IMG/VR virus record: IMGVR_UViG_3300028833_000053
Length of the DNA: 64,000 bases
Strand: one strand, 5' to 3'
From: a virus
Taxonomy: Duplodnaviria; Caudoviricetes
The notes under the pieces were generated by a model. The model saw nothing but the letters and a program-made list of their open reading frames with translations, did not search any database and was not told the DNA's origin. Below are positions 1-64,000 of this stretch, in pieces. The position numbers and the translations under genes were made by a program. The stretch's first letter is position 1; every line of letters begins with the position of its first letter.

Positions 1-533
1 ATATGGGAGATGTTCACCCAATCCTGGGGCGAAACGCGGAACTGAACATTCGTGGAATATCCACCCCGCTGAGTTTCATCATAGATCTTCTTGTTGATTG
101 CCCTGATGTAATTCACAATGGACTTGTCCTCGTTCTTTGAAGACTGGTAGAAACACTTTCTTGCGTCAATGTTCAAGTTGTAGCAAGCCTCAACAAACTT
201 CTGTTGGTTCATTGCAATTGAGCAGGAATCGTTGATTCCCGTTTCCTGTGGATCATAATCATCCGCCTTGCAGCACTCGTCGGGCGTCTCACCATCCAAC
301 TCATCTGCCTTGCAATCACCCTCTGCGTCTTCCTTGACAAGAGCTTTCTCCAAGTTCTCCTTGCCATACCAAGGTTTGCCATCATCGCGCTGTTCCGGTG
401 GCGGAGGTGGTGGCATTGGAGGCTTTGCCCCATTCGCCATTGTCACGGCACCCGCAAGAGCCGCATCAATCTTGTCCTGGTCAAGTTCCACGGCCTTGCC
501 GTCCTTGTCCTACACTATTCTTCTTTTAGCCAT
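1..533 (-). CDS. hypothetical protein, partial (runs off window start; 1 in-frame TAG)
   Basis: ATG at 533 (MAKRRIV*DKDGKAVELD...), overlaps the stop of the upstream gene; open to position 1 if TAG is read through. Confidence 0.6.
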
Positions 534-819
534 TTTTGGTTTCCTTTTCCTTTATCAAATCCACGTCATATGTAAAATCCTCTTCCATAGGATCGTCATC
601 GTGCGCCGGCTTCCGATACATGGTATTCCAAGATTCAATGGCGAACCTTGGCTCGTATTCCGTCGGGCCCATCGCACCGCAACAACCACATTCCATCTGC
701 CAGATGTCGCGCACCTCGGTCTCGCCATCTTCGTACCGTATTTTCACTGTATGATATTTCAGCTTGTGGCCGTGGTGGCCGCAGAAGGGACATATCTTGA
801 CTTTAGATTCTGTTTTCAT
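526..819 (-). CDS. Lar-family restriction alleviation protein (Zn finger)
   Basis: CPFCG...CGCCGAMGP...AIESWN pattern typical of Lar_restr_allev. Confidence 0.7.
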   Translation of the reverse strand: MKTESKVKICPFCGHHGHKLKYHTVKIRYEDGETEVRDIWQMECGCCGAMGPTEYEPRFAIESWNTMYRKPAHDDDPMEEDFTYDVDLIKEKETKNG

Positions 820-827
820 ACATAGAA

Positions 828-2303
828 TTATACTTGAATGATGTCAGTGTTCTTAATCCCCCAAGGATAGCCAGACATTCCCTGTACGGCTTCACTGGTC
901 TTTCCGCTGAACACAACACTATTCAATTCACCACACCCCGCAAATGCGTTTTCCCCAATAGTTGCAACACTGGATGGAATAACCAACGTTGTAAGTCCCG
1001 TACAACCATAGAACGCCCTGTACCCAATGTTCGTCACGCTGGGTGGTATCGTTATGCTTGTAAGGGAACTGCAATTTTGGAACATCTGCGGACCAATTCC
1101 GGTAACGGTGTCTCCAAGCACAATGTCAATTGCCCTCAATATGTTTGGAATGGACGTATGCGTAAGTTCACCGGAAATGTCCCCCGTCCAATCGGGCAGT
1201 TTTGTTTGAAGAACATATTGGACAACGGTTGTTGCACTGGTAATTTCGGGCGTTGGATCATCACCACCACCTTCCTCGCCACCATCGTCATTGCCGTCTT
1301 CCGCCACCCATCTGTCATCCGGCTTCCACCACAACATTGAATTACCGTCGTTGAATGGAATCGTCAGCTTGAAATCGTATCTTTCATTTCCGGTGTTCAA
1401 CGCCCTCAAATACTCTTTCGTTCCATATTCCCACAAAATATGTTCGCAATCGGACAATGAAACCACGCCTGTTATGTCAAGTTCCCCATTCGTGTAGAGC
1501 TTCACCTTTATGTACTTCTCGGATGAACCGCCAATTGGCTTGAACAACTCGTAGAACACGTAATCCAAACGCCCAAAGGAATGCAGTTTGTTCATGGCAT
1601 CTATGTAGCGGTCATTCTTTCCAGAGTCCATGTAGTCGTCTGAATCAAACTCGTCAAGGTTCTTGTGAAAGTCAAGTTCGTGGTCTTTCACCATTCCCTG
1701 CAACATGTTTGCCAAATACTTTATGCGGGAATCTGCCAATGGGTTGTCTTGGTAATCGTCATCCCATTCATCAACTGATGCCATTCCAAGGTTGTCGGTC
1801 CAAGTCTTCGTCAAAATGTAGTCAACCCAATCCTAATCTGAATCCAAACTGCCAACGTTGTTGTCATGCTTCGAGATATACATCTGCATATTGTAGGATT
1901 CCTCGCCAACATCGTATTTTCCATCCAACCTTGCAATGTATTCCGTCATCCTTCCAAAATCACGGCGTCCCTCCCATATTTCATCGGCGGTAACTCCCAG
2001 GGCGTCCGCAACACGGTTTCTGTTGTCAAGAAGAAACTGCAACTTGTCTATGTTGTTCTTGAACATGACTTGTCCCTTGTCATATTCCCTGTACAATCCC
2101 CCACGATATTGTATCTGGCGTATTTGCTCGTTTCCAAGAATCTCACCACCCGTTATCTTGTTCAATGCCGTGGAGTATCTTTGGAACAAACGGGAAAGGA
2201 CGTAGTTGATTGACCGCATGTTCATGGACAACCCCGTAAGGGATTTGTTGAATTCCTCACGCGACTCTTCCTTCTTTTGCAATTCCTTTTCGCTCAGTGC
2301 CAT
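828..2303 (-). CDS. 491-aa protein with C-terminal BspA-type leucine-rich repeats (TAG readthrough at 1833)
   Basis: ORFs 1833-2303 and 828-1814 are in frame across a single TAG; C-terminal 'VTGIGPQMFQNCSSLTSITIPPSVTNIGYRAFYGCTGLT' is LRR_5-like; late motif at 2328. Confidence 0.75.
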
Positions 2304-2359
2304 AGTCTATATCCAATTTACATTTGGTATTTACCATTCTTCGTTTCCAATATAAAGCA

Positions 2360-2392
2360 AAGATGCGTGGAGTTGAATCCACGCATCTTCTG
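2360..2392. terminator. intrinsic terminator hairpin
   Basis: agatgcgtgga-gttgaa-tccacgcatct downstream of the lipoprotein gene. Confidence 0.6.
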
Positions 2393-2415
2393 TTTCATTG
2401 CTGTGTTCCAATTTG

Positions 2416-2946
2416 TTATGGGGTTGCAATGAACTTGCCGCCACGGCACTTCACGTTGCGCGTTGCGTATACAGCCTTTGCCCTCTGGCACTCTGGGCAG
2501 TCCTCTGGGAGGTTGAGCACCGACTGGCATCCCTTGCCAAACGCAGCCACAACCTTGCTGACCAGCTCGGCGTTTGCCTTGACCTTCTCGTTCGTTGCAA
2601 GGTAGGTGTCAATTCCATTGAGAATGACAACGGAACCCGCGTTGATGAGCGTCTTCTGGTAGTCGTTCAGCTTATCCTGCTTGAGGATGATTTCCTGAAC
2701 GGCGGGAAGAACGCTGTCAAGATAGGTCTTGCCCTCGCCAACCGCAACGGTCGCGGTTGTGACGTAGCCAACCACGTCCTTCAGCACGGCCTTCACCTGA
2801 GGATCTGGATTGTCGATGCTGAACCAAGTCAGCATGGCAATGGAACCCGCGGTGTTGGCTGCGCCAACCAGTGTGCTTTCAGAAGGGTCGCATCCCGTAA
2901 ACAACATGGAAAGGGCTGCGACCATGGTGATAATCATTTTCTTCAT
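2416..2946 (-). CDS. putative lipoprotein
   Basis: MKKMIITMVAALSMLFTG-C signal peptide with lipobox. Confidence 0.7.
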   Translation of the reverse strand: MKKMIITMVAALSMLFTGCDPSESTLVGAANTAGSIAMLTWFSIDNPDPQVKAVLKDVVGYVTTATVAVGEGKTYLDSVLPAVQEIILKQDKLNDYQKTLINAGSVVILNGIDTYLATNEKVKANAELVSKVVAAFGKGCQSVLNLPEDCPECQRAKAVYATRNVKCRGGKFIATP

Positions 2947-2985
2947 AGTTAGTTTTCCTTCTTTCCTTTGATAGTTCAATTATAC

Positions 2986-3014
2986 AAAAAAGCCAGACCC
3001 CTTGGGTCTGGCTG
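2986..3014 (-). terminator. intrinsic terminator
   Basis: aaaaagccagaccc-ctt-gggtctggct; U-tract on minus strand. Confidence 0.7.
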
Positions 3015-3036
3015 GTGTGATATGTGGCGCAATCAA

Positions 3037-3558
3037 TTACTCGTCGTCCTCATCTTCGTCATGGTCTTCGCCACACGAAAAATCATCGTCATCTTCCCTC
3101 TTGAAACCCTCGCGCTCTTCAAGGATGAACTCAAGCCCAATGTAGGGGTCGGGATCAGCAGCCCCCTCGGACTCATACACGGCGCGGAATCCACCAGTGG
3201 AGCATGTGGTTTCCTCCTGTACCGCGTCAATGAGCAGACGTTCCGCCTCGCGCTTCATTTCCTCAACGGTCGGAACCCCGAACTTCGTTCCAGCCCATTT
3301 CCAGTCCAAGTCCTCCATCACAGACTGAACCTTCTCGAAGTCGAACTGATCCATAATACTCTCGACCTTCTCGCGTTCAACCCTTGAAAGGGCATCGAGT
3401 CTGGAATATGGGGGAATGACCTGGACGGTCTCCCGCTTCCTTTGCTGCACAAGCGCGTTCTTGATTTCAAGCAGAGTGGATTCAAATGAATTCATCTTGT
3501 TCTCAAGCTCTTCAATCCTCTTTGAATTGTCTATCATGGTGGTTATCCTTTGTTCCAT
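3037..3558 (-). CDS. conserved phage hypothetical protein
   Basis: 173-aa ORF, IMDQFDFEKVQSVMEDLDWKW...TGGF motif, acidic tail, upstream TATAAT-like box. Confidence 0.65.
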   Translation of the reverse strand: MEQRITTMIDNSKRIEELENKMNSFESTLLEIKNALVQQRKRETVQVIPPYSRLDALSRVEREKVESIMDQFDFEKVQSVMEDLDWKWAGTKFGVPTVEEMKREAERLLIDAVQEETTCSTGGFRAVYESEGAADPDPYIGLEFILEEREGFKREDDDDFSCGEDHDEDEDDE

Positions 3559-4946: not shown

Positions 4947-6929
4947 ATGATACCATACGGATAGAACCCACACGGACTTGAAGACAGGTTGTTGAGCTTT
5001 CATGTGTATACAGTTGAAAACGGCGTAGCAACTGAAGTGGCATCGGCATAGACCAAAAACCGCCTATATTGCCACGCGGTGTTTCCCGCTGAAATGCTGG
5101 CATATGGACCCGAATGGGCAATAGCGTATGCACCAACGGCAGAATCATACAACGTCCTTCAAAAATACGTGACAAGGGATGAAGAGTGGCGTGACAACCC
5201 CCAACAATATATGGTAATGGGAAACCAAGATTTTTACCTTGAAATGTTCTATAACTACGCCTATCCAGAATATGCCACTGTTGTCATATTGGACACGTCA
5301 GGAAGTATGAACAATCCCAGTTAGTATACATTCACCAGTCCAAACGTCAAAATTAAATTTGACTATGAACATGCAAAGAACATTGTGTCTGCTGCAATAA
5401 GTGAATATGCTTGCTTCAAAGTAGACTCCATAGACTCCAAAATAATGATTTATTCAGGAACGTACATATCAAACTTGACATCCAATCTTATCGGTTCTTT
5501 GGACTTGAATTCAGCAAATTGGGCAGATATAATGGGGAAAGTAAGTCCACTTATAAACAGTGTCCCCAAAATAGGGGGTACGGAATCCATGGTCACCTGT
5601 TTCTACCGGGCATTAATTGAACTACAGAATAGATGGCTTAAAGATTTGGAAATTGGTTCTGATGATCAAAAACTCAAAGGAATTACATTCATTGTCTTTT
5701 CGGATGAATCGTTGTTCGGAGACAGTGTTGTTAATAACTATTCCGATTTGGTTCATAAAGAATCTGGAAAAGACCCAACATTTCCATGGTTTTATGATTG
5801 GCAAAAAAGAGAGGGAGGCACAAACAATAGATTTCCACATAGTAATTACGACAGCAGAGAAGGAAAAAAAGATTTCATTAATGGCATAACAAATGCCTTA
5901 AAGCAAATGTCATATTACTATGGCGTAAACATCAACTGGGCGTTGGTTCGTGGACCGACAGTGTATACATATAGACATAAGGCAACAGGTATATACCCAG
6001 ACGGATATGATACGGACACATCAAATACTCTTGGGAATTTTGATCAAACCGATTGGACTATGTTTGGAAACAATGGCATTGGTGGGGCGCGACCAACTTT
6101 TAACTGTCTACCATTTATTCATGTAAATTCAAATTACGTTCCTGCGGGTGCCCCAGTGTCATATTAGTGGATTATGCCTGGGTCATATCATGTAAATTCG
6201 CTTTATATACCAATGTACAGAGTCATCGTTCAAACCCCAATTGGAGCAACAACGTCAATGAGCGTAATGACCTATGATGACCAATTTACCTCATATGCTA
6301 CAATGAAATCCAAATGGCATGCAATAAATCAAATTTCCGCGTCGGGAAGTTTTCCAGGATTTTCCCAATATTGTGCATTTAGATTTATGGACACCGTTTA
6401 TTCTGGAAACTACAACTTGAACACTGAAACCATTACACTTCCAACTGTCACCGGGGACGCTGGAGCAGTTTGGAAAATAATGTCCAGAACATCACCAAGG
6501 GCACTGGCACAGGGAACTACATATTAGTTGAATGTAAACGACACCGTTGACGGTGATACTTTCTGTTATAGATTCAGGTTGGCATATAAAATAAAACTTC
6601 ACTTGAACCGTGCAAATACGGTATGGACATCAGAGGTTGGAACACTTGATTGGGAAAATAACAGAACGGTGCTTGCAGAATGGGGTCAACCATTCCCGAC
6701 AATCCCGGGTGTAGCAGCATCGGATGGTGCAACCTTCAAAAACTGGATGATTTCGGGACTAGCACCATCCACAACTGAGGCCGGTTATACAAGTGACGCT
6801 TCGGGATACTGTCATTTGGCAGATGGAAAAGCCCAACTCACTACATATTGGTACAATATGCGCAGAAACATTGACCTATGGGCGCAATGGATTGAGCCTG
6901 CGCCACCACCTCCGCCACCTGCGGCTTAA
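4947..6929 (+). CDS. 660-aa vWA-domain virion protein (5 in-frame TAG)
   Basis: ATG 4947 with GGAGA RBS; ORFs 5079-5324, 5385-6167, 6174-6527 and 6528-6929 are in one frame separated only by TAG; MIDAS VILDTSGSM; C-terminal InlB-B/Flg_new-like 'TFKNW...DLWAQW'; ends TAA. Confidence 0.75.
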
Positions 6930-7718: not shown

Positions 7719-8441
7719 TTAACCGTTTTCAGTGTCCTCTATGATTTCCTCGTCCTCTTCGTCAATTTCCTGCATCAGTTTCAGCATGTCTATTGCACCG
7801 CTTTCCACCATACCGGGCGGCACGTCCTTTGCGTTCGTGACATCCTCGGCTTCCGCGGGGGTTGAATGCTGGCTGTTCCACTTCTCCATGTCAAGTTGGT
7901 ATTTCCTCTCAAGGACTTCAAGCCTATGCTCTTGCTTCAACTGCTCCATCTTCACGTTGTCGAAGAACTTTATCCTTTGCTTGTAGAGCGAGGTGTATTC
8001 CGAAATCAACTGACGAGTCTCGCCAATCAAGGAAGCTGCGGCCGCAACGGTCTCCGCATCCAAGACATCGCAACTTGAAATGATGCCATAGACGTTCGCT
8101 ATCATCTGCTTCGTGGTGTCCACCAAGTCCTCTATGGACTTGAAAGCGTTTTCCACGTTTACAAGATTGTCTATGCGGACGCTGGCGGACCCGTTTCCAT
8201 CTTGGGAGTTCTGCTGGAGTTGGGTCTTGGCGTTGTCAATGACCTGGATGTTCTGTTGGAACTTCTCGTCGATTTCGTCAACCTTCGCCTTTGTCTCCTC
8301 AATGAGTTGCGTGGTCTGGTCAATGACGGACTGTGCGTCATCCACTGGGGAAGTCACTTCGTTCATGTAGTCGTCGAAGGACTGTCCTTCCTGGATTCCG
8401 AGAAGTTCGTTCAACCGGTCTTTGTTGATTTGCTCGGCCAT
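7719..8441 (-). CDS. coiled-coil protein, possible small terminase (gp16-like)
   Basis: 240-aa helical ORF coupled to the sigma stop; weak resemblance only. Confidence 0.35.
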   Translation of the reverse strand: MAEQINKDRLNELLGIQEGQSFDDYMNEVTSPVDDAQSVIDQTTQLIEETKAKVDEIDEKFQQNIQVIDNAKTQLQQNSQDGNGSASVRIDNLVNVENAFKSIEDLVDTTKQMIANVYGIISSCDVLDAETVAAAASLIGETRQLISEYTSLYKQRIKFFDNVKMEQLKQEHRLEVLERKYQLDMEKWNSQHSTPAEAEDVTNAKDVPPGMVESGAIDMLKLMQEIDEEDEEIIEDTENG

Positions 8442-8989
8442 CAGTCCTCGTCGTAGTTGTCTTTCTTTCCGCTGTTGATTTCGGCGATGATGGAGTCCTT
8501 TTGCCTGCGCAGGAACTTCGCATCCTGCTCCGTAATCTGCTCGGAGCCAATCATCGTCTTGAGGAAGTTCATATATGATTTGTCAATGTTTATTGAGGGC
8601 ATTTCCTCAACTGCGCGTTCAAGGTTTTCCTTCACCAGCTATCGCTTGAAGTTCAAGTCATTGTAGTAGTCCTTAAGATATGTCATTGCACATGACCAGC
8701 AAATCTATGTGAAGTACGCAAAGGGATTCGTGAACGCAAAGTTGTATTTTGGAAGCGCGTTTATGCATCGTATGCAGGATTGCCCTATGATGTCCTCTTT
8801 GATTTCCTTTGAATATCTAACGTAGTCTGGATGTCCCATGTAGTGAGTTGCAATGTCCAGAATCATCTTCCCAAGATATTCGGAGGGTTGGCGTTTGCTT
8901 TCGTCAGGATCGGAATCCCGCCACTTCTTCAGTTCTTCAAGCAAGTCCTTGTTGCTCACAAACGGCTTGCGTTTGGGGCGTGGATTCAA
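8441..8989 (-). CDS. T4 gp55-like sigma factor for late transcription, 182 aa (2 in-frame TAG at 8705 and 8639)
   Basis: VSNKDLLEELKKW...YLGKMILDIA...YVRYS..KEDII...NPFAYFT*ICW; ORFs 8705-8989 and 8441-8635 are in frame. Confidence 0.88.
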
Positions 8990-9195
8990 TTTCTCCTGCT
9001 CCGCCCTCTGTTTCTATCGCAAAAGAGATTTTGCTAGGTTCTTTTTCTGGAATTCCTCCAGTGATTCGCTTTTCCTTCTTGGCATTGTTTATGTTTCCTG
9101 TATTATGTGGGACATTGACATTATTTGAATGGTCAAATATTGTAAATAATTCCCTTAATACGCGCTTCTTGCTGACAATTATACAGGAAATTGAA

Positions 9196-9606
9196 TTAGA
9201 AAATGCTGCGCACCTTGTGCTGGGGCTTGGATTCGATGTACGTTTCGTCAATGGTTTGGGTTTGGTTCTTCGGCTCGTCTATGTTGTAGTCCGTCCTGTG
9301 CTTGACTTTCTTCGTCTGGGTCTTCACAACATTGAACCTTCTTGGCAACGTCAGCTTTGACAAATCGTGCTTCACACGGTATCTTGCAAGTTCATGTGCA
9401 GGGTTCACCTCCACTTTGCATACGCGCCTTTTTATCCTGTGGTTGAAGCGAATGGCGTTTACCAAGGTTTCCATGTTGGGAATGTCAACAGGCGTGTCGC
9501 CCTCGTTTTGCACAAGGCCGCCTTTATCGCCGCAAATGATTATGGTGACTCTATCAGAACTTGTTCTCGAAGTCTTGTTTCGCTTCTGCTTTCGCCTTTG
9601 CTTCAT
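9196..9606 (-). CDS. basic hypothetical protein
   Basis: K/R-rich ORF from ATG 9606, ends TAA. Confidence 0.5.
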   Translation of the reverse strand: MKQRRKQKRNKTSRTSSDRVTIIICGDKGGLVQNEGDTPVDIPNMETLVNAIRFNHRIKRRVCKVEVNPAHELARYRVKHDLSKLTLPRRFNVVKTQTKKVKHRTDYNIDEPKNQTQTIDETYIESKPQHKVRSIF

Positions 9607-10774
9607 TGTATTTCTTTCCCTCTTGAATTGCAAATTCCGCCCTTGTTTCCAAAAGTTCGGGATCCTCATCTGGATATTTCTACTTTAATGCCACTTCAAG
9701 TCTTTTCTACGCCAATTTGTCGTTTTTCCCCCACAAAGGACTGTTCAAGATTTCCGCTGCCATTTTGTCGTCATCGTCATAGTCGTTTTCGTCAAATTCC
9801 TCGTCCTCATCTTCTTCCTCATCGTCCTCGTCCTCTTCATCCTCATCTTCTTCGTCATAGTCCTCGTCATCGTAGTCATCATACCAATCATCATCCTCGT
9901 CCCACGGATATTCCTCATCCTCGTCATACTCATCATCTTCATCCCACGGATATTCATCATCGTCATACTCGTCATACTCATCGTCATAGTCATCATCATA
10001 GGGATCGTCGTAATCTTCTTCGTCCTCATCATCTTCGTAATCGTCATCTTCCCAATCATCTGGATCATACGGCTCTTCATCTTCCGTTGGCTGCTTTGCG
10101 CCCTCTTCCTTTGCAAAGTCCTGTGCAGCCTGGTCATCCGCCTTGCCGCAGTCATATGAGATATGCGTAAACGAACCCGTCAAGTCGAATTCCACGAAAC
10201 CCGTTCCGTCTTGAGTCAATTCAACGTCGCCAATTGAAGTTGGATGAAAGTTGTGTATTATCCAATGGTGATGCGTTGCGTCATCCGGTTTGTTCCTCAA
10301 CCTTATTTCCAAAATGTCCTCGTCAGGACTCAAGTTGTATTGGTTGCCGATTGTAGCCCTGGGGTCGCCGGCGACCAATGGATGACCCGTCTGCAAAACC
10401 ATGTTGCGCAAGTCGTAGTAGTGGAAACCCTCTTTGTCCGCAATGATGGTCATGGTAATATCCGTGTTCTCATACATAATGTGCGTGGGAATGGATATTG
10501 TGAACCCGGCATGTGAGAGTTCAAGGGTGTTTACTGAAACCCCGGGAATGGTCACGTTCTTGGCGAAGAATATGGTTCTCGGCCAACGGCTCCAAACAAG
10601 TTCGTACTTGCACTGGACTATGGGTTGGGACAAGTTGAAAGCGTCAAGGTACGTCTGGAGGTTGGGCTTTCCATCCTACCATCCAGGATATTTGGACTCC
10701 GACCCGCGTTCAACTTCGTTGTACTCAAGGTAGTCCTTTCTGCTGTATCCTTCGTCGTTTTCCTCTATTGCCAT
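9554..10774 (-). CDS. tail tube-like/baseplate-tube junction protein with long acidic tract, 406 aa (3 TAG)
   Basis: ATG 10774 in frame through TAG; 'NVTIPGVSVNT...FHPTSIGDVELT...VEFDLTGSF' resembles gp19/gp54/gp3 tube-fold proteins; ends TGA 9554. Confidence 0.65.
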
Positions 10775-10800
10775 GGTTTTCAACTCCCTTGTTTAATCGC

Positions 10801-26039: not shown

Positions 26040-26053
26040 TGGAGGGCAATCCC

Positions 26054-26245: not shown

Positions 26246-26248
26246 AAG

Positions 26249-26929: not shown

Positions 26930-26960
26930 CAATATGCCTTTCAAATCAATTATACTTTCT

Positions 26961-27992: not shown

Positions 27993-27994
27993 TG

Positions 27995-47836: not shown

Positions 47837-47879
47837 TGTTCTTTCTTCTCTATCTACCAATCTTCAACTTTCGTAGAAC

Positions 47880-49256: not shown

Positions 49257-50009
49257 TTATGAAAGTTCCCGTAAGATATTTGTCATAGTGCAATTGGTTG
49301 TGCAAAACAACTTGTTCACAGACCTTATGGACTTGTACTCTTTTGGTGTCCAAGAGTTGTGCAACATATATATTGGTAGTTTTGGCATTTCATCCAATGT
49401 CAAATTCTTGTTGAAATACAAGTCCACATACTTTTCATGCCTTTGCAGTTTGGTTCCAGAACCTTCCGCATAGCAAATTGTGTTTGGATGACGCTAGAAC
49501 TGTTCAGGATGTTTCTTGATATATGGAACATACATATTGCATCCAAAAGCCAGGGAAGTCGTATCCTCTCTCTTCTCCGTAACAAGAACCTTCTTCACTT
49601 GCAGATCTTTGTAAAACCGGAGAAACTCCGTATTTGGTTTTGATTTCAAATACCCATTACTGCTTCCAAACATTTCAAGCCCAACACCATCGTCCATTTC
49701 TGCATCCAGAAACCTCTCCTCGAATTCGGATGATGGGATTATCGTGTCGCAATCCAACCACACACCGCCATTGTTCAACAAAACGTCACATCTAATCACA
49801 TCCGAGATTTTGGCAAGGGAAAATATCTTGGAACGTGTCAACTTCTCCCACATTTCCTTGTCCTATGGCAACGTTGACCAATCCGACATGTTATCATATG
49901 TGAGAAGAACAATATCGTGATGGTGAATGTTCTTGTGCCAAGTCTGAATGCAAGCCTGTATATATGCGGGAATCTTATCCACGTTATGCCAGAAGTGAAA
50001 TATCTTCAT
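49257..50009 (-). CDS. capsular-polysaccharide-synthesis / GT32 DXD glycosyltransferase, 250 aa (2 TAG)
   Basis: IFHFW...IPAYIQACIQTW...SDVIRCDVLLNNGGVWLDCD...MLHNSWTP. Confidence 0.75.
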
Positions 50010-50021
50010 TGTCAAACTCCT

Positions 50022-51161
50022 TCAATTCATGTTATTTCCCAAAGCACTGTACTCTTCGAGTCCAAGTATGGAATTGACAATGTTTTGACACGGTGTTTTC
50101 CCATTGGGAAACTCACTGCAATATTTGGCAATATACTCCTTACGCAAACCGGAATTTTGATCTTTTCCATCAAGAACGTCTCTAACAAACCTATCAACGG
50201 TGTCTCCATTTTGCGGCCAAACAATCTCATGGCAGTTGATTGCATCCTTGCCCATTTGAGACCAAATCTTCGGGTCCATGTTCACGTCATTTGCAACGTA
50301 GCACACTGGCTTGTCCATGTAGAGATATTCACAACGGAACGAGCCGCAATCATGTATCATCGCGTCGGAGTGCTTGAACCAATCAACATGGTCCGCGTCG
50401 CAAACTATCAAGCATTTCTCGGAAAGTTTGTCCAAAATGTTCGCAGCCTTTTCAAATATTTTAGTGTCCTTCACACGCTTCAAATTGGATTTCCATTGAT
50501 AGTACAAATTTGGGTGTGGTCTTACAACAAACTCCACCTCATTCTTGTACTTATCCACCATCTATATCAAGTCGTCCCCAATTTCAAGAAAATTGGTCTT
50601 GTTGCCATACTTCGTATACGTGTTCTCCTGCAACGTCCAATGCGGGCAAATCAAAATCCTTTTCTTTCCCGTTGTTTGCCAAGGATCATTGAATTGCTCT
50701 TTTGGTTTCCTCAATACCTCTGCCCAAGGATGTCCAGTAAGAACGTGATAGGGCTTTTGTATGAGTTCAGGCAAGTCGCAAAACACCAAGCAGGCCTGGG
50801 CGTTGTATATCTGATTGACATGAATATGCCATCCAAGGGAATAGCGTATGAACATCATCTTGCGCTCAATAACCAGTTCATCATAGAGGTCTGGATCATT
50901 GAGGTGTGAATACTGGGCATACAACAAAGGAGGAAATACCAGATCAACGTCATAGATTGCATTGGAATATTCTTCTCTGTCTTTTGTTTCAATGACCTTA
51001 AACCTTTTGTCCGACATTATATAATTCTCAAACGGGCCCGTCTTGCACTTGCACTTGTACCCATCTATGTTGCTGTTCATGTCGGATGGAAAAAGGACGG
51101 TTATAGGCTCGCCGTCCCTGTACTTTTTCCTCAATTGCTCTAGTTTTTGATACCTTTTCAT
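50022..51161 (-). CDS. CDP-glycerol:glycerophosphotransferase (TagF-like) family protein, 379 aa (1 TAG)
   Basis: ILICPHWT, VRPHPNL, SDAMIHDCGSFRCEYLYMDKPV; two ORFs abut at TAG 50562. Confidence 0.7.
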
Positions 51162-51206
51162 TTCACTTCCGCCCAATGTATTTACCAAAAGCCAGAAAAT
51201 TCCACA

Positions 51207-53621
51207 TCAAGCGTCCACGCATGTGTGCTTGACTCTCTGCTCAGTCTCCTTCTGCTTGCCGTAGTTGAACGCAGTCTTGTAGTCGCCGGTCAAGTAGCCC
51301 GTCACGCGGCGAAGCCTCTGGATGTTGGTGGAGCCGCACTGGGGGCATTTCTCGCCAATTTCATCCGTGTAGCCGCAATCGTTGCAGATGTCGTTCGGGA
51401 CGTTGATTGCGAAATAGGGGATGTCGTGATCCATTGCGTAGTTCACAAGCTCCTCTATTGCCTTGATGTTGTTCTTCGCGGTTCCGTCAAGTTCAACATA
51501 GGTGATGCATCCTGCGCTAGAATATCCCGTAAGCTGACTTTCAAGGTCAATCTTCTCAAACGGCGTCATCTTCTCCCATACGGGAATGTGCATTGAATTG
51601 GTGAAGTAATCGTGGTCTGAGACATGTTCAATCTCGCCATACTTCGCCTTGAACTTCTTCATCGCAGTATAGCACAGATTCTCCGCTGGGGTAAAATACA
51701 CGCCGAAATTCAGCTTGTACTCCTTCTTGAACTCCGCGCACCTGTCCTTGAACAACTGCTCGATTCGTTTCGCAAGTTCCATGCCCTTCTCCGTGGCGTG
51801 GTTGCATCCAATGAGGATGTGAAGGGTCTCCGCAAGTCCCAACTGACCGATTGCCAACGTTCCATGCTTCAGCGCGGACTTGATGCCCTCTTCTGGCTTG
51901 TAGCCGTACATCGTCCCGTTTTCGTACATGAACTTGGCGGACGCAGCGGGTTGTGAGGTAATCCAGTCAAACCTTTCAAGCAGTGAATCCTTGGCTTCAT
52001 GAATCTTCTTGTCCAGAAGTTCCATGAAATACTCAACTGTTTTTGTCTCCGCCGCCCCTTCGCACCAGTCAATTCCCTTGGCGGTGGCTTTCTTCAATTC
52101 AGATTCCATTTTCTTCTTCGCCTGCATCGCCAATGTCGGCATTATGATCGTCGTCGGACAGATGTTTCCCCTACCGTCCTTCAACTGAACCAACTTGGGA
52201 TCTTCCGCGTTGATGTCGGCAAGGTTGGCGGTTCTGCATCCCATCGTGCTGAAATAGGTGCAGGGGTTGTTTGGGTCATAGCCAGCTGCATTTGACCAAT
52301 CCACGTTCGCATAGTTCGGATAAAGCCTCAACGCAGTTGACTTGCAAGCCAACTTGAACAAATCGTAGTTGGGGTCTCCCTTCTTCCTGTTCACGCCCTT
52401 CATGCACTGGAAGATGCCACACGGGAATATGCTTGTCTTGTGAAACTTGCCAATTCCCTTGATTGAACCCTCAATCAACGCCTTTGTCACCATTCTTCCC
52501 TCTGGCAACGTGCAAGTGCCATAGTTTATTGACGTAAACGGCAACTGGTTTCCGCTCCGCGATTGTAGTGTATTGAGGTTGTGGTACATTCCCTCAACCG
52601 CCTGCTCCAGTTCTCTGGTTGTCATTTCCATGGCATACTTGTACGCATCGGGGAACTTCTTGTATGCATCGCTTTCAATAGAAACTTCCTTCGACAAGAT
52701 TGTATATTTGACCTTTCCGTTCTCCTCCTTGGCATAGCCATTGTCCTTCAGCCATTTCAACTTCTCGTCATGTGTCAAACCAGACTTCTCAAACTCCTTG
52801 TATTTCTTCTGAATCTCGTCATCCCCAGTCCATTCATTTGTGAATTCTACGAACTGCAAGAGATTCACGCCCTTTCCTGAATTCTCAACGAATTCCAATG
52901 CGTCCTTGAAGTGCTTGAAGAAAGACTTGCGCACATACGGCACCATCGTCCAGTCAAGATGGGTTGCCGCAACCCCACCGAACTGCTGCAGGGATTGAAG
53001 CTGGAATATCACAGCCACCAACTGAAACGCGGTGTTGATTGAGCCAGCTGGTCTGACATCACCCTGCCTTGTGTTGAAGCCCTCTTTCAACAACTTGTCA
53101 AATGGGATTGAAAGGCAGTTGTGACTGCCCACTGCGTATGCGTCAAGGTCGTGGATGTAGACCTCGTTGTTGTTGTGGTTGTGGCGCGTCTTCTTGGAAA
53201 CCAGATGTTCCAATGCGTAGTTCTTCATCACATAAGACGCGGTCTCGCCCATTCTCCCACCAAATGAATACTCGTCAACGTTCGCATTTTGGTTTTGGAC
53301 ATTGGACGCGGTCAGCTTCTCGGTGAGGTATTTTGTGTTTCTGACCCTCTCCTTCTCGTATCGGTACGTGATGTACTTCTTGGCAACCTCGTAGCCAGCG
53401 GCCTCCATTATCTTCTTCTCAATGACATCCTCAAGAATGTCAATGTCAATCGGCTCCTCCAACGTCTCGCAAAACGCCACCACGGAATCCGTTATGCGCT
53501 TCAGCTGCTTTGCTGTCAGCTTCTCGTCGGCCTTTACGTTCTCGTTTGCCTTGATGATTGAATTCAAAATCTTCTTCGGTTCAAGGTCTTCCACCTTGCC
53601 GTCTCGCTTTATCACTGTCAT
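51207..53621 (-). CDS. nrdD: anaerobic ribonucleoside-triphosphate reductase (class III) with ATP cone
   Basis: VIKRDG ATP cone, YIHDLD, NC, MGCRT, TPAENL, CxxC/CxxC, RRVTGYL glycyl-radical motif. Confidence 0.95.
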   Translation of the reverse strand: MTVIKRDGKVEDLEPKKILNSIIKANENVKADEKLTAKQLKRITDSVVAFCETLEEPIDIDILEDVIEKKIMEAAGYEVAKKYITYRYEKERVRNTKYLTEKLTASNVQNQNANVDEYSFGGRMGETASYVMKNYALEHLVSKKTRHNHNNNEVYIHDLDAYAVGSHNCLSIPFDKLLKEGFNTRQGDVRPAGSINTAFQLVAVIFQLQSLQQFGGVAATHLDWTMVPYVRKSFFKHFKDALEFVENSGKGVNLLQFVEFTNEWTGDDEIQKKYKEFEKSGLTHDEKLKWLKDNGYAKEENGKVKYTILSKEVSIESDAYKKFPDAYKYAMEMTTRELEQAVEGMYHNLNTLQSRSGNQLPFTSINYGTCTLPEGRMVTKALIEGSIKGIGKFHKTSIFPCGIFQCMKGVNRKKGDPNYDLFKLACKSTALRLYPNYANVDWSNAAGYDPNNPCTYFSTMGCRTANLADINAEDPKLVQLKDGRGNICPTTIIMPTLAMQAKKKMESELKKATAKGIDWCEGAAETKTVEYFMELLDKKIHEAKDSLLERFDWITSQPAASAKFMYENGTMYGYKPEEGIKSALKHGTLAIGQLGLAETLHILIGCNHATEKGMELAKRIEQLFKDRCAEFKKEYKLNFGVYFTPAENLCYTAMKKFKAKYGEIEHVSDHDYFTNSMHIPVWEKMTPFEKIDLESQLTGYSSAGCITYVELDGTAKNNIKAIEELVNYAMDHDIPYFAINVPNDICNDCGYTDEIGEKCPQCGSTNIQRLRRVTGYLTGDYKTAFNYGKQKETEQRVKHTCVDA

Positions 53622-53685
53622 GTTTATCCTCTTTGATTCTGGTGTACAAACATACATTTACCATTATCAATTATACCAGCGAAAA

Positions 53686-53968: not shown

Positions 53969-56314
53969 TCAATATCTGCTGAACACGTAACCATCTTCCT
54001 CGAAGTAGTCGTTTATGAAAAGATCGCGTCCAAAAGACTCATAGTCAAAGTAGTTTCTCGCCGTGTCGGGACCCAACTGGTCAACGCCACCAAGACTGTC
54101 AACGTAATCTTCCGCAACTTGCCTGTCGGACTCGTACTCTCCCTGGTCATAGCCATCGTTGTCGTAGTAGTGGTCTGGGTCTTCAGGCTCGCCCTCGGAG
54201 TCCGTGTTGTCGGGGTCTCCGATGTGGAAATCATACATCAAGTCACGTCCAAAGGAATCGTAGTCAAAGTACATGTCAAGGTTCTCCTGACCAAGACTGT
54301 CCCAACCCATGCTGTCAACAATGTGGTAGGCGAAATCCTCTGCGGAGTTAAACTGTCCCTGATACGCATCGTGGAAATCGTCAATGCTGTCATTGTCAGT
54401 GTAGCTGACATAGGCGGCATAGGCATCCTTCTCCGAATCGTCCATCATGTAGTATTCGTTGATTTTGTCAAACTCCTCCTCGGTTGGCAAGCCACCTTCG
54501 TGATACCACTTCTCGGGGAAGTTCTCATAGTCCTGAACCATGAACTCTGGGTCTTTCTCGTCGGAATGAAGTTCACGGCAAGCATCCACGAATTCCTCGT
54601 AGGTGTTGTAGTCGGAAAGGGTTATCCACTTTCCGTCAATGGAACCGTTGTTGTACTTGGCGTATGTTCCAACGTAGATTTTGGGTTCTCCCAAGTCAAC
54701 GTCACCATCGGCTTCCTTCACGACCTTCTTGTTTGACTCGCCATAGCAGTCCAACGCCTGATAAACCTTGTCAAGCTGGCGTTGCATCCAAATCTTGTCG
54801 ATGCGGTCGCCGCTCTTTCCATATTGGACGCAAGCATCACCATAGTCGTTGATGATGTTCTTGACGTCCGCCGTTCCTTCCTTCACAATCTTCTTCATCG
54901 TGTTCTTCCTCGTAGATTCATTCAATTTGTTAAACTCCGCATAGAACTTGCCCAACCTGTTGCGCCACTTGATAGCCACCTTGTCGTCAGTCATTGATGT
55001 TGCTCCGGCGCGAACGAGAGAATACAACGTGTCAAGATCCTTCTTGCCATTGATTTCAAGTTCCCAGTTCTTGTCGGAGGAATCATAGAACTCCTCCAAC
55101 TTGTCAACCCACTTTTGGGCATCGTCAAACTTCAAGCTGGCAAGGTGAATCAAACCATAAAGCTCGTCAAGTTCCTTGCGGCTCCTGATTTCCAGATTCC
55201 ACTTCATTCCCTTCTCAAGCTCTTCCCAGTTCGTGGATTCCTCCATTCTTCCATTGTAGGTTGAAACCCAATTCTCGAAATCATCCAGCAACTTGCCAAT
55301 CAAAAGCTCTTCGTCCCTGCTGCAGGTCTTGTTCTTCCAATCATGCTCGATGTCAAACAAACGGTCGCGCAATTCCCTCAACTCAAGGTCGCCCTGTTTC
55401 TCTGAAACGCCATGATGCTTGACATCGCGGATTACCCTCTTCTTGGCGGCTTCAATAGCCCTCTTGAACTTCTGAAGTTCGGACGTCTCCTTCACAACTT
55501 TCTTCATATTGGTTTTCCTCGTGGATTCCTTTAGTCCGGCAAAAAGGGATTCTATCTTTTCCAGTTCATCCGGTGTTGCATCCAACCTTCCATATTCCAT
55601 GTCAACGATGATTCCGGTCTCGCATTCACCCTTCGTCTTGTACCTGTTTCCTGGTATGTACTTTCCGGTTTCGTTGTCAAAACCCACCCACCAGCTCTTT
55701 CCGTCCAATGCGGTTCTCTGCTTTGCTGAATACCTTTTGGTTATGTCCTTCAAGGGCAACATTGACTCGTTCACAATATCTTCTTCTTCTTCCAAAGACA
55801 AAAGTTCGGGCGCCGTTTGCCTGAGATATTCCCTGTCCTCGTCTGTGAACGACCCCATGCTGGAAAGATAATCCTGAACGGCCCAAACCTTGTCCTCGGA
55901 TTCATCCCATGACGGGTTCACTCCACTTGGCTTGAACTCCTTTTCCTTTTCAGCCAAAAACGTTTCCAAGTTGCCAATGGATTCCTGCACATATCTTGGG
56001 CCGTCATCGTCAATGACGTGGTCTTCCTCTTCATGATAGCCAACGTCCTTGAATTTCCTTGCGTCAATCGCAGCAAGGAACTCAGGAATTTGATCCTTTG
56101 ACATGAAATCCTCATCGTACAGCTCATATTCCTTGAGTTCATAGTTCACCCTTCCGATTGGCGCACCTCTGTAGTAGATTTCATATCCATGGTCATAGCC
56201 ACCAAGAGCCATTTCCCAGTTTCCGCATCGGCCACGCTCGCCGTTGTCGTCAATCTTATCCATTACCTTCGCAAGGGCGGAGAAATTAAGTTTGGATTCA
56301 TTCATCTTTTTCAT
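53969..56314 (-). CDS. multi-module polyprotein with C-terminal ArdA anti-restriction domain
   Basis: C-terminal ~240 aa: PKIYVGTYAKYNNGSIDGKWITL...DPEFMVQDYENFP...YFDYESFGRDL...DGYVF matches ArdA; repeated xxES linkers. Confidence 0.85.
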   Translation of the reverse strand: MKKMNESKLNFSALAKVMDKIDDNGERGRCGNWEMALGGYDHGYEIYYRGAPIGRVNYELKEYELYDEDFMSKDQIPEFLAAIDARKFKDVGYHEEEDHVIDDDGPRYVQESIGNLETFLAEKEKEFKPSGVNPSWDESEDKVWAVQDYLSSMGSFTDEDREYLRQTAPELLSLEEEEDIVNESMLPLKDITKRYSAKQRTALDGKSWWVGFDNETGKYIPGNRYKTKGECETGIIVDMEYGRLDATPDELEKIESLFAGLKESTRKTNMKKVVKETSELQKFKRAIEAAKKRVIRDVKHHGVSEKQGDLELRELRDRLFDIEHDWKNKTCSRDEELLIGKLLDDFENWVSTYNGRMEESTNWEELEKGMKWNLEIRSRKELDELYGLIHLASLKFDDAQKWVDKLEEFYDSSDKNWELEINGKKDLDTLYSLVRAGATSMTDDKVAIKWRNRLGKFYAEFNKLNESTRKNTMKKIVKEGTADVKNIINDYGDACVQYGKSGDRIDKIWMQRQLDKVYQALDCYGESNKKVVKEADGDVDLGEPKIYVGTYAKYNNGSIDGKWITLSDYNTYEEFVDACRELHSDEKDPEFMVQDYENFPEKWYHEGGLPTEEEFDKINEYYMMDDSEKDAYAAYVSYTDNDSIDDFHDAYQGQFNSAEDFAYHIVDSMGWDSLGQENLDMYFDYDSFGRDLMYDFHIGDPDNTDSEGEPEDPDHYYDNDGYDQGEYESDRQVAEDYVDSLGGVDQLGPDTARNYFDYESFGRDLFINDYFEEDGYVFSRY

Positions 56315-57185: not shown

Positions 57186-57986
57186 TTATTTACTCCCTTT
57201 ATAGTTTTTATGATTCTTATGGTTTTTATGCCAAGACTCCTTCATCTTTCGTTTGGTTTCTTCTGATAAATGTTTACCGTACATTGGATTGTTTTGTCCT
57301 TTCCTTTCATTAGACAACTTTAATTTTGCTTCATCCGATAAATGTTTTCCCTTACTCCAAGTATTCTTTCCTTTAAGTCTCTAGGATATTTTTATTTTTG
57401 ACTCTTCTGAATGGTGTTTTCCACCAAATCCAGGTTTTCTCCCCTTTAATGATTTTGCACGTTTCTATATTGTTTCTGGTGAAGGATGTGAAAATTGATA
57501 TGGTAATGGTCTCCCTATATTAGCCTATCTTATTTTCTCTATGTGTTCCTATGATAATTTTCTCCCTTTATGAGACATGGACAATTTTTTGCGATGTTCT
57601 TCTGAAAATTTTTTACCTTTATGTGCCAATGATAATTTCAATTTGGTTTCATCAGACAAATGTTTTCCTTTATTTAATTCTGAAACTTTCATTCTGACAA
57701 ATTCATAAAGTCTTGAATTGAATCTGAATCCTCTATATTGATTTTTATTACTGGTTCTCATCATAGTTATTGCCGTCCACATTCCTTGCGTATTATAAAT
57801 CTTGGCTAATAATAAATGACAAATATAATGTTCTCTAGCAGTTAGAAAAACCAAATTAGAAGACTCATTAGAACCTCCTTCTGATTTTGGTATTATATGA
57901 TGACTTTCGCAATAACAATCATCACGATTAATTGGATTCTTCCGACGCTTTTCAATAAGCGCATTGTAAACCTTTAAGTAGTTCAT
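57186..57986 (-). mobile_element. free-standing HNH homing endonuclease with NUMOD3 repeats, 266 aa (4 TAG)
   Basis: ESHHIIPKSEGGSNESSNLVFLTAREHYICHLLL; repeated KGKHLSxExK.K.S; strongly AT-rich. Confidence 0.85.
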
Positions 57987-61846: not shown

Positions 61847-62194
61847 TCACGCAACCTTGTTCGCCTTGACGTAGGCGGCTTCCAGCTTCTCCCATGAGAA
61901 GTATTCCATCTTGGCAAGCTGGCCCGCGTACTTGCCAAGTTTCGCGTACACCCACTTCATCTGCTTCTCGGAGAGCCAACCGTGTGTCTTGTACCACTCG
62001 GCGAACTTCGTGAGCAGGCAGGCATCACCAACCGTGAACCCAATGCCATTGGCGGCATAGGTGTCCTTGGAATTCTGCTCCCCCTTGGTCTGGTTGTCGT
62101 AGATGCGGAGAAGGGCGGCCTTCGCCCAAACGGGATTGTGGACGAGGTTCCAACGCAGGAACTCCATCAGGGCGGCTTTCGTAATCTTCTTCAT
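61847..62194 (-). CDS. conserved jumbo-phage early protein
   Basis: AALLRIYDNQT..EQ....T...NGIGFT..DA..LT.FA...LSEKQ; first gene after early promoter. Confidence 0.6.
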   Translation of the reverse strand: MKKITKAALMEFLRWNLVHNPVWAKAALLRIYDNQTKGEQNSKDTYAANGIGFTVGDACLLTKFAEWYKTHGWLSEKQMKWVYAKLGKYAGQLAKMEYFSWEKLEAAYVKANKVA

Positions 62195-62249
62195 ATCATC
62201 TACTCCTTGCAGGGAACTCGTGGGCATCCCTTTCTCCCTCAGAACACTT

Positions 62250-62282
62250 ACAGTATAACAAATTGGGGTTGGAAAGTCAAGG
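62250..62282 (-). promoter_or_regulatory. sigma70-type early promoter
   Basis: TTGACT-17 bp-TATACT. Confidence 0.8.
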
Positions 62283-62373
62283 GGGTTCTGAAACTATTTT
62301 CAATTCAATTTAGCACAATATCCGCCCATTTTCAAGGAACAATTGTAAATATTATGTAAAAGAGGTTAAAAAC

Positions 62374-62772
62374 ATGATGAAATGGCTATTGAAACTTGGA
62401 CTGAAATTCGTGTCCTACCAAACTCTGGTCAACACCATTGCTTCTGCAATCGCGTACATACTTGAATACGCAAGGAAGGAGGCAACTCCTACTGCATGGG
62501 AAAACGCAAAGGAAGCAGTGAGGCAAATCAAGAACTGGGCATCTTTGCTTGATGAAGTGTATGAGGACGATACCCTCACCTCCGACGAAGAGAAGAAGAT
62601 CCAGAACGCAATTGCGGACTGCACCGCAACAACCACAATATACAACCTGTTGAAGGGCAAGAAATCTCCGAAAAAGGAAACCTGGTCAAAGACCGCTGAT
62701 CCAAAGACGGAAACCCCCAAGAATAAAAAGAACAGGAAAAGAACAACCAAGAAAACGGGAACCAAGAAATGA
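62374..62772 (+). CDS. late hypothetical protein with basic tail
   Basis: late motif at 62345, GAGG RBS. Confidence 0.6.
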   Translation: MMKWLLKLGLKFVSYQTLVNTIASAIAYILEYARKEATPTAWENAKEAVRQIKNWASLLDEVYEDDTLTSDEEKKIQNAIADCTATTTIYNLLKGKKSPKKETWSKTADPKTETPKNKKNRKRTTKKTGTKK

Positions 62773-63305
62773 AAAGGAAAATCAACGAATCATCCGAACA
62801 GGAAACCTTGAAGGAAATTGAACGCACATATGGAAAGAAAGTACGTGACGCTCTTGTGAAATACTGCACTGCGAAGAACTTGGACATCACCGATACGGTG
62901 TACGAGACAAAGACCGATGGAAACGGCCAAACCCCTTGGGACAAGTTTGACAACTGGGCCGAAAAGAAGTTGGGTCTTGACATAATGGGAGACTTTGACG
63001 ATGACTTCGATTACACTGGAGCGGACGCCAGGGCGAAGAGGGAAAGGGGATTGCAGGAAGTTCCCTTGGCATCCTTGGACAGCTTCGATGAGGGAAGCGG
63101 AAGCAACCCAATTGATGAATACTTCATCCGAAACTGGATTGCAGAGGAACTTGAGGAATGCGAATGGGTTGATCCTTCAGAAATCGAGTACTCCGGCGAG
63201 GAACCCTGGGTTGAAGTAACGGCGCAAAATGGTGTCGTGTACAGAATCCAGGTGACAAAGGAATTCGCGCCAAGGGAAGTGAACGCAGTGGACGATCTCA
63301 TATGA
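62769..63305 (+). CDS. putative internal head protein (MKRKINES tag)
   Basis: ATGA-coupled, acidic. Confidence 0.6.
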   Translation: MKRKINESSEQETLKEIERTYGKKVRDALVKYCTAKNLDITDTVYETKTDGNGQTPWDKFDNWAEKKLGLDIMGDFDDDFDYTGADARAKRERGLQEVPLASLDSFDEGSGSNPIDEYFIRNWIAEELEECEWVDPSEIEYSGEEPWVEVTAQNGVVYRIQVTKEFAPREVNAVDDLI

Positions 63306-63721
63306 TAAAGTGGAGAAGAATAGACGAATCCTAGGGTTGTCAAGAGACAACCACCCTTGACCTGCTCTGCAAGAAAGACGCGGAGCAGCTCAAGAGGTTT
63401 GCGGTGGAATACAGGACGCTGTGCGAAAGCGCGGTGAACCTGCAATCCGGGAAGTTCCTGGAAATCTCCAAGACGAAACTCGCCATCATCAAGAAGTTCC
63501 TTGCGGGACTTTGCGAAAAGGACGGCGTTGTGAAGGAGTCCATGAAAGAGGGAATGAGCCGCCTGACTAAATCAACCTGCAGAAAGATAATGGACATGGT
63601 GATGAAGTTCGGATGGTATTGCTGGTTCTACGGCGACCAGATGTTTCCGTGGGAGGACGCGGAACAAGACGATTCAAGGGACAAGTTGGAATCCTATCTG
63701 GATTCGCTTGTGGCGGCATAA
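63302..63721 (+). CDS. putative internal head protein (MIKWRRIDES tag; 1 TAG)
   Basis: ATG 63302 overlaps upstream TGA; in frame with ORF 63404-63721 through TAG. Confidence 0.65.
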
Positions 63722-63742
63722 ACAAAACGAGGTAAAAAGAAA

Positions 63743-64000
63743 ATGGCAGTAAACATAAACACGTTGATAACTGGAACAATGACACTTGGATCTGGTGATT
63801 CTACCCCTTCAGAACCAACAGCTCCACAAGGCAAGGTTCTGTACAAGATAAGCGCAGATGGAGACTGGCTTCAGTCAGATGCTGACATAATGGAAGGTGT
63901 TTTCAATAACTTCGCCCAAAAAGAAATTGCAGTTGCAGTCATAATCCCAAGCAAGGATATAAATGAAAATGACGTTACGGGCATCACAGATGGTGCATTC
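63743..64000 (+). CDS. partial CDS, probable BspA-type LRR protein
   Basis: GAGG RBS; ends ...VIIPS...VTGITDGAF at window edge. Confidence 0.5.
   Translation, partial: MAVNINTLITGTMTLGSGDSTPSEPTAPQGKVLYKISADGDWLQSDADIMEGVFNNFAQKEIAVAVIIPSKDINENDVTGITDGAF

Follow-up and report, generated by a model that had tools for sequence, protein, structure and literature searches.

In-frame TAG as a probable glutamine codon in a tailed phage of the sheep gut with a complete 434-kb genome and a T4-like core

In-frame TAG in the window and across the genome

The stretch of DNA analyzed here, a window of 64,000 nucleotides whose own positions are used unless G000 is named, corresponds to the minus strand of a single virus record of 433,895 bp at positions 119373-183372 (IMG/VR record IMGVR_UViG_3300028833_000053, here G000), and many of its genes are interrupted by in-frame TAG triplets. 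The record carries direct terminal repeats according to IMG/VR, is 100% complete by the CheckV estimate and has a GC content of 46.6%. Its DNA is held by runs recorded as sheep gut metagenome; two RNA libraries from another sample and study (X3 and X4) contain 71 to 86% of the words sampled from it, with smaller shares in runs from cattle and other guts. The genome is that of a complete, ~434-kb tailed phage from the sheep gut metagenome with a T4-like core, which includes a gp17-type terminase, a gp55-like sigma factor, a gp20-type portal, an RNase H and a Dda helicase. Two complete relatives, G001 (414,060 bp) and G002 (418,068 bp), each with ~70% nucleotide identity to G000, were used whole for comparison. 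An earlier note, made from the letters of the window, had proposed that TAG is a sense codon in this phage, very likely for Gln as in NCBI table 15, and our results from codon exchange, alignment of the gp55-like protein and a tRNA with the anticodon CUA bear this out.

Simple measures of coding potential are of limited use in this genome. On the plus strand of the window, TAA occurs 416 times, TAG 442 times and TGA 1,219 times. When TAG is taken as sense, a greedy tiling of the window falls from 75 to 53 open reading frames (ORFs) and coding density rises from 0.91 to 0.943; across the genome, a crude estimate rises from 0.892 to 0.937 under table 15. A rise of this kind had been suggested as a check, and it is present but not decisive, as taking TGA as sense also inflates the ORFs, and even more so than TAG, because TAA and TAG together are rare in all frames. 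With both trinucleotides rare, ORF length and density are poor discriminators, and we dropped them as proof on their own.

A stop-agnostic comparison is more telling. A log-odds codon-usage score was trained on long stop-free ORFs and applied to the 40 codons on each side of every candidate triplet in the same frame. Coding signal was present on both flanks of 19 of the 741 TAG triplets in the window, as against 0 of 858 for TAA and 2 of 2,779 for TGA, and genome-wide the corresponding numbers are 81, 14 and 27. The window holds 61 in-frame TAGs in 25 ORFs, and 18 of these have a TAG at a distance of over 15 codons from both ends, in agreement with the earlier count of at least 18 genes interrupted only by TAG. 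In tblastn searches of G001 and G002 with proteins carrying X at TAG, and with at least 10 aligned residues required on each side, 29 TAGs in 10 genes of the window fall within single alignments to relatives, as do 220 TAGs in 93 genes across the genome. Three further genes, encoding the HNH plus NUMOD3, TagF-like and Caps_synth proteins, have Pfam domains that reach across, adjoin or enclose the TAGs, and matches to PHROG families, too, extend across TAGs.

That the TAGs could be true stops, in split or decaying genes, or C-to-T errors of sequencing or assembly, draws on the facts that the fragments read under table 11 are still long ORFs and that density drops just from ~0.94 to 0.91. We regard this explanation as effectively refuted. 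It does not account for coding frames in the window that are broken by TAG and not by TAA or TGA, nor for the 52 TAG positions that are kept as TAG in relatives at ~70% nucleotide identity, and it would leave the essential genes for terminase, portal and late sigma factor broken. A single 14.5-kb frame holds 12 TAGs and no other stop. Errors are ruled out by the contigs of X3 and X4, which over the 20 kb examined differ from G000 by 2 and 4 bases in total and whose pieces spanning at least 15 TAG codons (e.g., 28560-30311, 36161-37190 and 42999-44094) show 0 differences. In-frame TAG is therefore real, conserved and specific to TAG. Ten cases, in small ORFs, of an in-frame TGA opposite GGA in relatives were considered as a second reassignment and were instead read as spurious antisense ORFs, since TCC and TCA are synonymous on the other strand.

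Table 1. Features of the window, with in-frame TAG codons numbered from the start of each gene (aa, amino acids)
Feature	Position	Strand	Length	In-frame TAG	Family match or remark
BspA-type leucine-rich repeat (LRR) protein	828..2303	-	491 aa	codon 157, within relatives' alignment	LRR_5, E 1.2e-20
329-aa protein	2398..3387	+	329 aa	codon 185, within relatives' alignment	
660-aa ORF	4947..6929	+	660 aa	5	open only with TAG as sense
gp55-like late sigma factor	8441..9085	-	214 aa	codons 24, 127, 149 (9016-9014, 8707-8705, 8641-8639)	
Tail-tube-like protein	9554..10783	-	409 aa	codons 36, 359, 368; codon 36 within relatives' alignment	phrog_45
Caspase-domain protein	13674-14525	+	283 aa	0	Peptidase_C14
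Dda-like helicase	17389..18654	-	421 aa	0	phrog_325, E 4e-90
SbcC-like nuclease subunit	22139..24034	-		last codon only, then TGA	phrog_77, E 2.5e-60
GT25-like glycosyltransferase	26249..26944	-	231 aa	codons 36, 45, 53	381 phmmer homologs
Nucleotidyltransferase-like protein	26961..28019	-	352 aa	codons 250, 282	weak Pfam MTPAP-like match
526-aa protein, function not assigned	27995..29575	-	526 aa	codons 16, 30, 39, 106, 327	phrog_6427
Large terminase (TerL), T4 gp17 type	29856..31847	-	663 aa	codons 26, 28, 110	Pfam Terminase_6N, E 4e-17
Giant ORF	33356..47860	-	4,834 aa	12 (no TAA or TGA)	14.5-kb frame
Caps_synth / DXD glycosyltransferase	49257..50015	-	252 aa	codons 51, 174	
TagF-like glycerophosphotransferase	50022..51188	-	388 aa	codon 209	PF04464, residues 173-302
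NrdD anaerobic ribonucleotide reductase	51207..53657	-	816 aa	0	Pfam NRDD, E 7e-147
ArdA-ending protein	53969..56314	-	781 aa	0	C-terminal Pfam ArdA anti-restriction domain, E 3.1e-33
HNH + NUMOD3 homing-endonuclease-like protein	57186..57986	-	266 aa	codons 146, 154, 174, 202	
133-aa protein	61857..62258	+	133 aa	codons 6, 68, 82; codons 68 and 82 within relatives' alignment	

The amino acid at TAG and its probable decoding

To identify the residue, codon exchange between G000 and its two relatives was counted at sites with 4 or more identities among the 8 flanking residues. Opposite the TAGs of G000 the relatives have TAG 52 times, CAG 41 times, AAG 13 times and CAA 12 times, with each other codon found at most 4 times, such that CAG or CAA makes up 53 of the 110 non-stop codons. 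When these 110 residues were scored against the substitution profiles that the same alignments give empirically for each amino acid, the log-likelihood was highest for Gln (-242 nats), followed by Lys as the next best (-392) and Glu (-424), a lead of ~150 nats over Lys and ~180 over Glu. The share of Gln opposite TAG grows with the stringency of the flanks, from 48% at 4 of 8 identities to 59% at 6 and 74% at 7, and so approaches the range of 69 to 81% in which CAA and CAG codons are themselves conserved. In the reverse direction, TAGs of the relatives face CAG 26 times and CAA 17 times in G000, and when counts are taken per codon type, no sense codons face them more often than CAA and CAG. 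CAA, which is two steps from TAG, outnumbers most one-step neighbors opposite TAG and, with both directions pooled, exceeds every one-step non-synonymous neighbor, an excess that favors synonymy over mutational proximity.

Individual genes of the window point the same way. The gp55-like gene matches the late sigma factor family phrog_234 (E 2e-20), and the profile of its homolog alignment matches T4 gp55 (PDB 7d7c_F, E 1.3e-14), pointing to membership of the gp55 late sigma family, including its NP.AY.TQ motif. Homologs have Q opposite codon 24 in 5 of 5 cases, opposite codon 127 in 17 of 19 and opposite codon 149 in 11 of 19. The TAG at 8707-8705 is the X of NPFAYFTXI, where the earlier note had expected Gln; T4 gp55 reads NPHAYITQ, with Q in the same column. 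In TerL, codons 28 and 110 face CAA, CAG or TAG in relatives that are 81 to 86% identical, and codon 26 faces Gly. Codon 110 (31520-31518) stands 11 residues ahead of the Walker A motif SRQVGKT, and its position, like that of the TAG at 8705, had been given correctly. All five TAGs of the 526-aa protein lie within alignments to relatives, mostly facing CAG, CAA or TAG, and codons 250 and 282 of the nucleotidyltransferase-like gene face CAG/CAA or TAG/CAA. For the giant ORF, 8 of 12 TAGs fall within alignments to relatives, and RNA-library contigs of the other sample are identical to it across many TAGs.

The genome also offers a means of decoding. ARAGORN finds 36 tRNAs in G000, one of which, at 410487-410576 on the complement strand and outside the window, has the anticodon CUA. 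This tRNA(CUA) is 90 nt long, with a 19-nt extra arm, U1-A72, G2-C71, A3-U70, G10, A37, A73 and an encoded CCA. The supE-type amber suppressor tRNA-Gln(CUA) of Escherichia coli has the CUA anticodon, U1-A72, G2-C71, G10, A37 and G73. Judged from sequence alone, the phage tRNA shares with it the anticodon, U1-A72, G2-C71, G10 and A37, and differs in its 19-nt extra arm, in A73 rather than G73, and in A3-U70. Amber suppressors are often charged by glutaminyl-tRNA synthetase (GlnRS), as cited in 10.1101/2021.08.26.457843. About 55 nt upstream of the tRNA gene lies a hairpin followed by a sigma-70-like promoter site, TGGATA-16-TATAAT, which suggests transcription by the host sigma-70 holoenzyme. 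At the syntenic site G002 has a different CUA tRNA, one that scores above the threshold of Rfam model RF00005.

Several observations weigh against Gln and have to be set beside this evidence. The tRNA(CUA) of G000 is atypical: its best Rfam model is tRNA-Sec (33.6 bits, E 3.5e-4, under the 47-bit threshold), on account of the extra arm, and it is missing from the results of a search of the whole genome with RF00005 at E <= 0.01. Among the tRNAs of the three genomes, compared with the arm removed, the closest is a tRNA-Gln(UUG) of G001, though narrowly (score 21 versus 17), and the resemblance to the phage's own tRNA-Gln genes is weak. In G001, which is equally recoded, ARAGORN gave no CUA tRNA even with its thresholds relaxed. 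More Lys stands opposite TAG (10 to 15%) than opposite CAA and CAG (2 to 7%), an excess that we attribute to the preference of TAG for variable positions. In distant homologs, the TagF-like TAG column has E in 31 of 57 and Q in 1 of 57, the three GT25-like columns are dominated by K and R, and the Caps_synth column has I and A in its two homologs.

These columns are also what speaks for another amino acid at TAG, whether Lys, Glu, Tyr or pyrrolysine, the last being the label that ARAGORN gives the tRNA; to the K/R and E columns may be added AAG as the third most common codon opposite TAG and an extra arm as long as in class II tRNAs. We consider such a reading very improbable. The 110-codon likelihood prefers Gln by a wide margin, CAA is in excess over nearer codons, and Q occupies the only TAG column that is strongly conserved, that of the gp55-like protein, while no match to PylS (TIGR02367) was found in G000, G001 or G002. 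Distant columns were dropped as evidence on the amino acid, since the sites are variable: TerL codon 110, for instance, is I, K, M or H in distant relatives, and the TAG columns of the GT25-like gene are variable and polar. Because TAG stands mostly at such columns, a profile-column approach of the Codetta type, which had been recommended as a check, has little power on this window; the gp55-like columns are mostly Q, and the TagF-like, GT25-like and Caps_synth ones mostly other residues. The NUMOD3 repeats of the HNH protein, tried as an internal guide, are ambiguous, with codon 146 facing D or E in sister repeats. Nor does the extra arm say anything on the identity of the tRNA, as in G000 it is also found on Thr (83 to 91 nt), Arg-UCU (89 nt) and Asn (88 nt) tRNAs and not on Leu tRNAs; a Ser, Leu or Tyr origin deduced from the arm was dropped for this reason. 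The tRNA set is structurally odd in other ways, with Leu tRNAs of 77 to 79 nt and short variable loops (G000 310600-323600) and one 97-nt tRNA-like gene with a 6-nt anticodon loop.

Taken from codon exchange with relatives, the gp55-like alignment and the phage tRNA(CUA), UAG is very probably a sense codon for Gln, as in NCBI table 15, with TAA and TGA as terminators. The phage would supply its own tRNA(CUA) from behind the sigma-70-like promoter. Because no gene for a release factor, GlnRS, glutamyl-tRNA synthetase (GluRS) or PylS was found (searches for the release-factor PCRF domain and for class Ic Glu/Gln-tRNA synthetases covered G000, G001 and G002), we infer that a host enzyme, either GlnRS or GluRS together with an amidotransferase, charges the tRNA with Gln and that at UAG the charged tRNA is in competition with release factor 1 of the host. 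Both steps match published views on such phages (10.1101/2021.08.26.457843). A search of the rest of the genome for a CUA tRNA, release factor 2 (RF2) or GlnRS, which the earlier note had called for, thus yielded the tRNA and neither of the others.

The same considerations bear on the host. Genome-wide, 295 of 473 ORFs (62%) end in TGA and 178 in TAA. With so many TGA ends and no release factor encoded, the host must terminate at TGA, which excludes hosts using code 4 or code 25. We know of no bacterium that reads TAG as Gln, and on these two grounds the host probably uses the standard code (code 11), as had been supposed; the firm part of that supposition is the termination at TGA. No host can be called from NrdD, as its homologs (45 to 71% identity) are scattered across Bacteroidales, Erysipelotrichaceae, Oscillospiraceae, Prevotella and others.

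TAG usage, promoters and the genes of the window

Among genes with relatives, TAG accounts for 321 of 3,789 Gln-type codons (CAA, CAG and TAG), or 8.5%, which is ~3 per 1,000 codons. Genes differ in their TAG content by more than chance allows, with a chi-square of 627, as against 317 on average and 446 at most in simulations. Long genes free of TAG include those for DNA polymerase, topoisomerase II, helicases, NrdD, the ArdA fusion and GroEL, as well as the structural genes for the major head protein (phrog_138) and the 1,209-aa tail sheath. TAG is present in the genes for terminase, portal (phrog_213), the gp55-like sigma factor, tail proteins and several giant proteins, and in many genes of unknown function. 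The TAG share falls with protein conservation, from 11.8% in proteins with 35 to 50% identity to the relatives to 3.7% in those with 80% or more (Spearman -0.29, p 1e-5). This distribution favors a minor codon that carries a slight cost and has been removed from genes that are constrained and probably highly expressed, over a clean switch between early and late expression. The absence of TAG from genes for replication, nucleotide metabolism, major capsid and sheath fits suppression that would be efficient but imperfect, with TAG tolerated mainly in less constrained genes.

Searching within 120 nt upstream of ORFs across G000, we found two enriched promoter-like motifs. GTAAATA, which resembles the T4 late promoter, precedes 69 ORFs at an 8.7-fold enrichment, mostly 10 to 55 nt from the start, and a -10-box-like motif, GTATAATT(GA), precedes 42 to 44 ORFs. 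Enriched upstream motifs in the window lie, for example, ahead of 27995-29575, 57186-57986 and 3645-4934.

A temporal switch of the code, in which TAG is a stop early and Gln once suppressor tRNA accumulates, is a published model for other phages with recoding (10.1101/2021.08.26.457843) and would make recoding a regulatory gate for late genes. It shares its decoding mechanism with Gln insertion by the phage tRNA(CUA) and adds a regulatory function, for instance through the gp55-like sigma factor, whose gene has three TAGs in G000 and at least one at codons 24 to 26 in each relative. The uneven spread of TAG and its absence from many long genes for replication, nucleotide metabolism and anti-restriction (those for DNA polymerase, topoisomerase II, helicases, NrdD and ArdA) are likewise what such a switch would produce. 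However, typical late genes, those for the major head protein and the tail sheath, are TAG-free too, and the TAG share is equal behind the two kinds of motif (0.089 for GTAAATA genes versus 0.087 for TATAAT genes; Fisher p = 1) and tracks protein conservation instead. The sigma-70-like promoter of the tRNA(CUA) suggests early expression, and at a TAG share of 8.5% at least one TAG is expected in a gene the size of gp55 in about half of genomes, so that its occurrence in three relatives is not significant. We therefore consider a temporal switch unlikely, and its most specific form, in which the gp55-like sigma needs UAG suppression and the suppressor tRNA acts as a timer that gates late transcription, somewhat less likely again. 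The tRNA(CUA) that would be the timer is structurally atypical and differs between sister phages.

Our preferred reading, TAG as a minor Gln codon, is accompanied by signs of context preference and of an older role for the triplet. The next base is T at 39 to 45% of real stops, compared to 18% of in-frame TAGs, and the preceding base is A at 45% of in-frame TAGs (206 supported by homology), compared to 12 to 16% for CAG and CAA. A preceding C, giving CTAG, is halved. The bias toward a preceding A could be due to avoidance of CTAG or to an effect on suppression. TAG is denser in the last five codons of genes, at 4.9 per 1,000 versus 3.1 overall, and a few genes (e.g., G000 116781-117578) keep a conserved C-terminal TAG that is followed by a variable tail or immediately by TGA or TAA. 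Such TAGs may be fossil terminators with back-up stops, or may still be functional. The SbcC-like gene, which ends AGA TAG TGA and in whose relatives a TAG stands at about the same place ahead of a variable tail of 7 to 9 codons, likely carries a fossil terminator. The earlier statement that all genes end in TAA or TGA holds only by construction.

How TAG sits within domains varies from gene to gene. The identities given earlier for the terminase, gp55-like, GT25-like, TagF-like and HNH genes are borne out. The earlier claim that TAGs fall inside conserved domains stands for the TagF-like protein; the HNH protein has HNH at residues 25-48 and NUMOD3 repeats up to residue 248, with Pfam matches on both sides of its TAGs; those of the GT25-like and terminase genes lie just outside the Pfam stretches, within alignments to relatives. 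In the Caps_synth gene, PF05704 (E 2.9e-19) covers residues 4-106 and thus encloses codon 51. A public protein of 157 aa, P0107, is identical to residues 75-231 of the GT25-like gene and is its truncated table-11 product. A related strain (run X5, ~96 to 97% identical) has a contig that joins 26035 to 27033 and lacks the GT25-like gene, which marks this gene as a strain-variable accessory even though it bears three TAGs. The 660-aa ORF has no Pfam family, no PHROG family and no match in relatives. The giant ORF has three Hint/pretoxin-HINT (PT-HINT) domains at about residues 2720-3145 and an FGE-sulfatase-like domain at residues 2376-2464. In some relatives the match to TerL spans 2.4 to 2.7 kb rather than 1.99 kb (L002 5691-8354, L003 10001-12664 and L006 10001-12445), which suggests an insertion in their TerL genes, possibly an intron, intein or homing endonuclease, that is absent in G000.

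Relation to known recoded phages and significance

Recoding of TAG to Gln in G000 is not a new phenomenon and has precedents among phages of the gut and rumen. It is documented together with suppressor tRNAs in Lak megaphages and some crAss-like phages, both named in the earlier note, and in other clades of the gut (10.1101/2021.08.26.457843; PMC11165621), and in other phages it is backed by metaproteomics (PMC9523058). Among rumen jumbo phages, which share the habitat of G000, 8.75% are reported to use alternative codes, and code-15 genomes to carry CUA suppressor tRNAs (PMC13037316). G000 resembles the code-15 gut phages in probably reading TAG as Gln, in its own tRNA(CUA), its TAA and TGA stops, an animal gut source, a huge genome and many tRNAs. 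It differs from Lak phages, which have genomes of 476 to 660 kb and coding densities that climb from 69% to 89% under table 15 (PMC11165621), in that its recoding is light, from 0.89 to 0.94 on a crude estimate, and that its genome, at 434 kb, is below their size range. No RF2 gene was found in G000, unlike some Lak and Agate phages, which carry RF2, and its T4-like terminase and late sigma factor are a further difference from Lak and other recoded gut phages.

With T4-like phages G000 has in common a TerL with 32 to 34% identity to the terminases of T4-like and related myoviruses, the gp55 family, the late-like GTAAATA motif, the phrog_213 portal, the phrog_138 major head protein, a tail sheath, the Dda helicase and RNase H. 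The T4-like phages matched are standard-code records of ~135 to 200 kb, whereas G000 is recoded and 434 kb in size.

In practical terms, under table 11, 143 of 598 ORFs across the genome end at TAG, and about a third of G000 genes are split or truncated, such that annotation requires table 15; among public protein records, at least P0107 holds a truncated form of a window gene. Screens by coding density may miss genomes as lightly recoded as this one. In the survey of rumen jumbo phages, coding density had to rise by 10% (PMC13037316), and G000, with a gain of ~5% by our own estimate, could fall below that threshold.

To the known code-15 phages these results add a clade with light recoding, mid-range GC, a T4-like core and genomes of ~415 to 434 kb, represented by three complete genomes. 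TAG as a rare codon that has been purged from constrained genes bears on the debate over whether the recoding of phages is regulatory or a product of drift.

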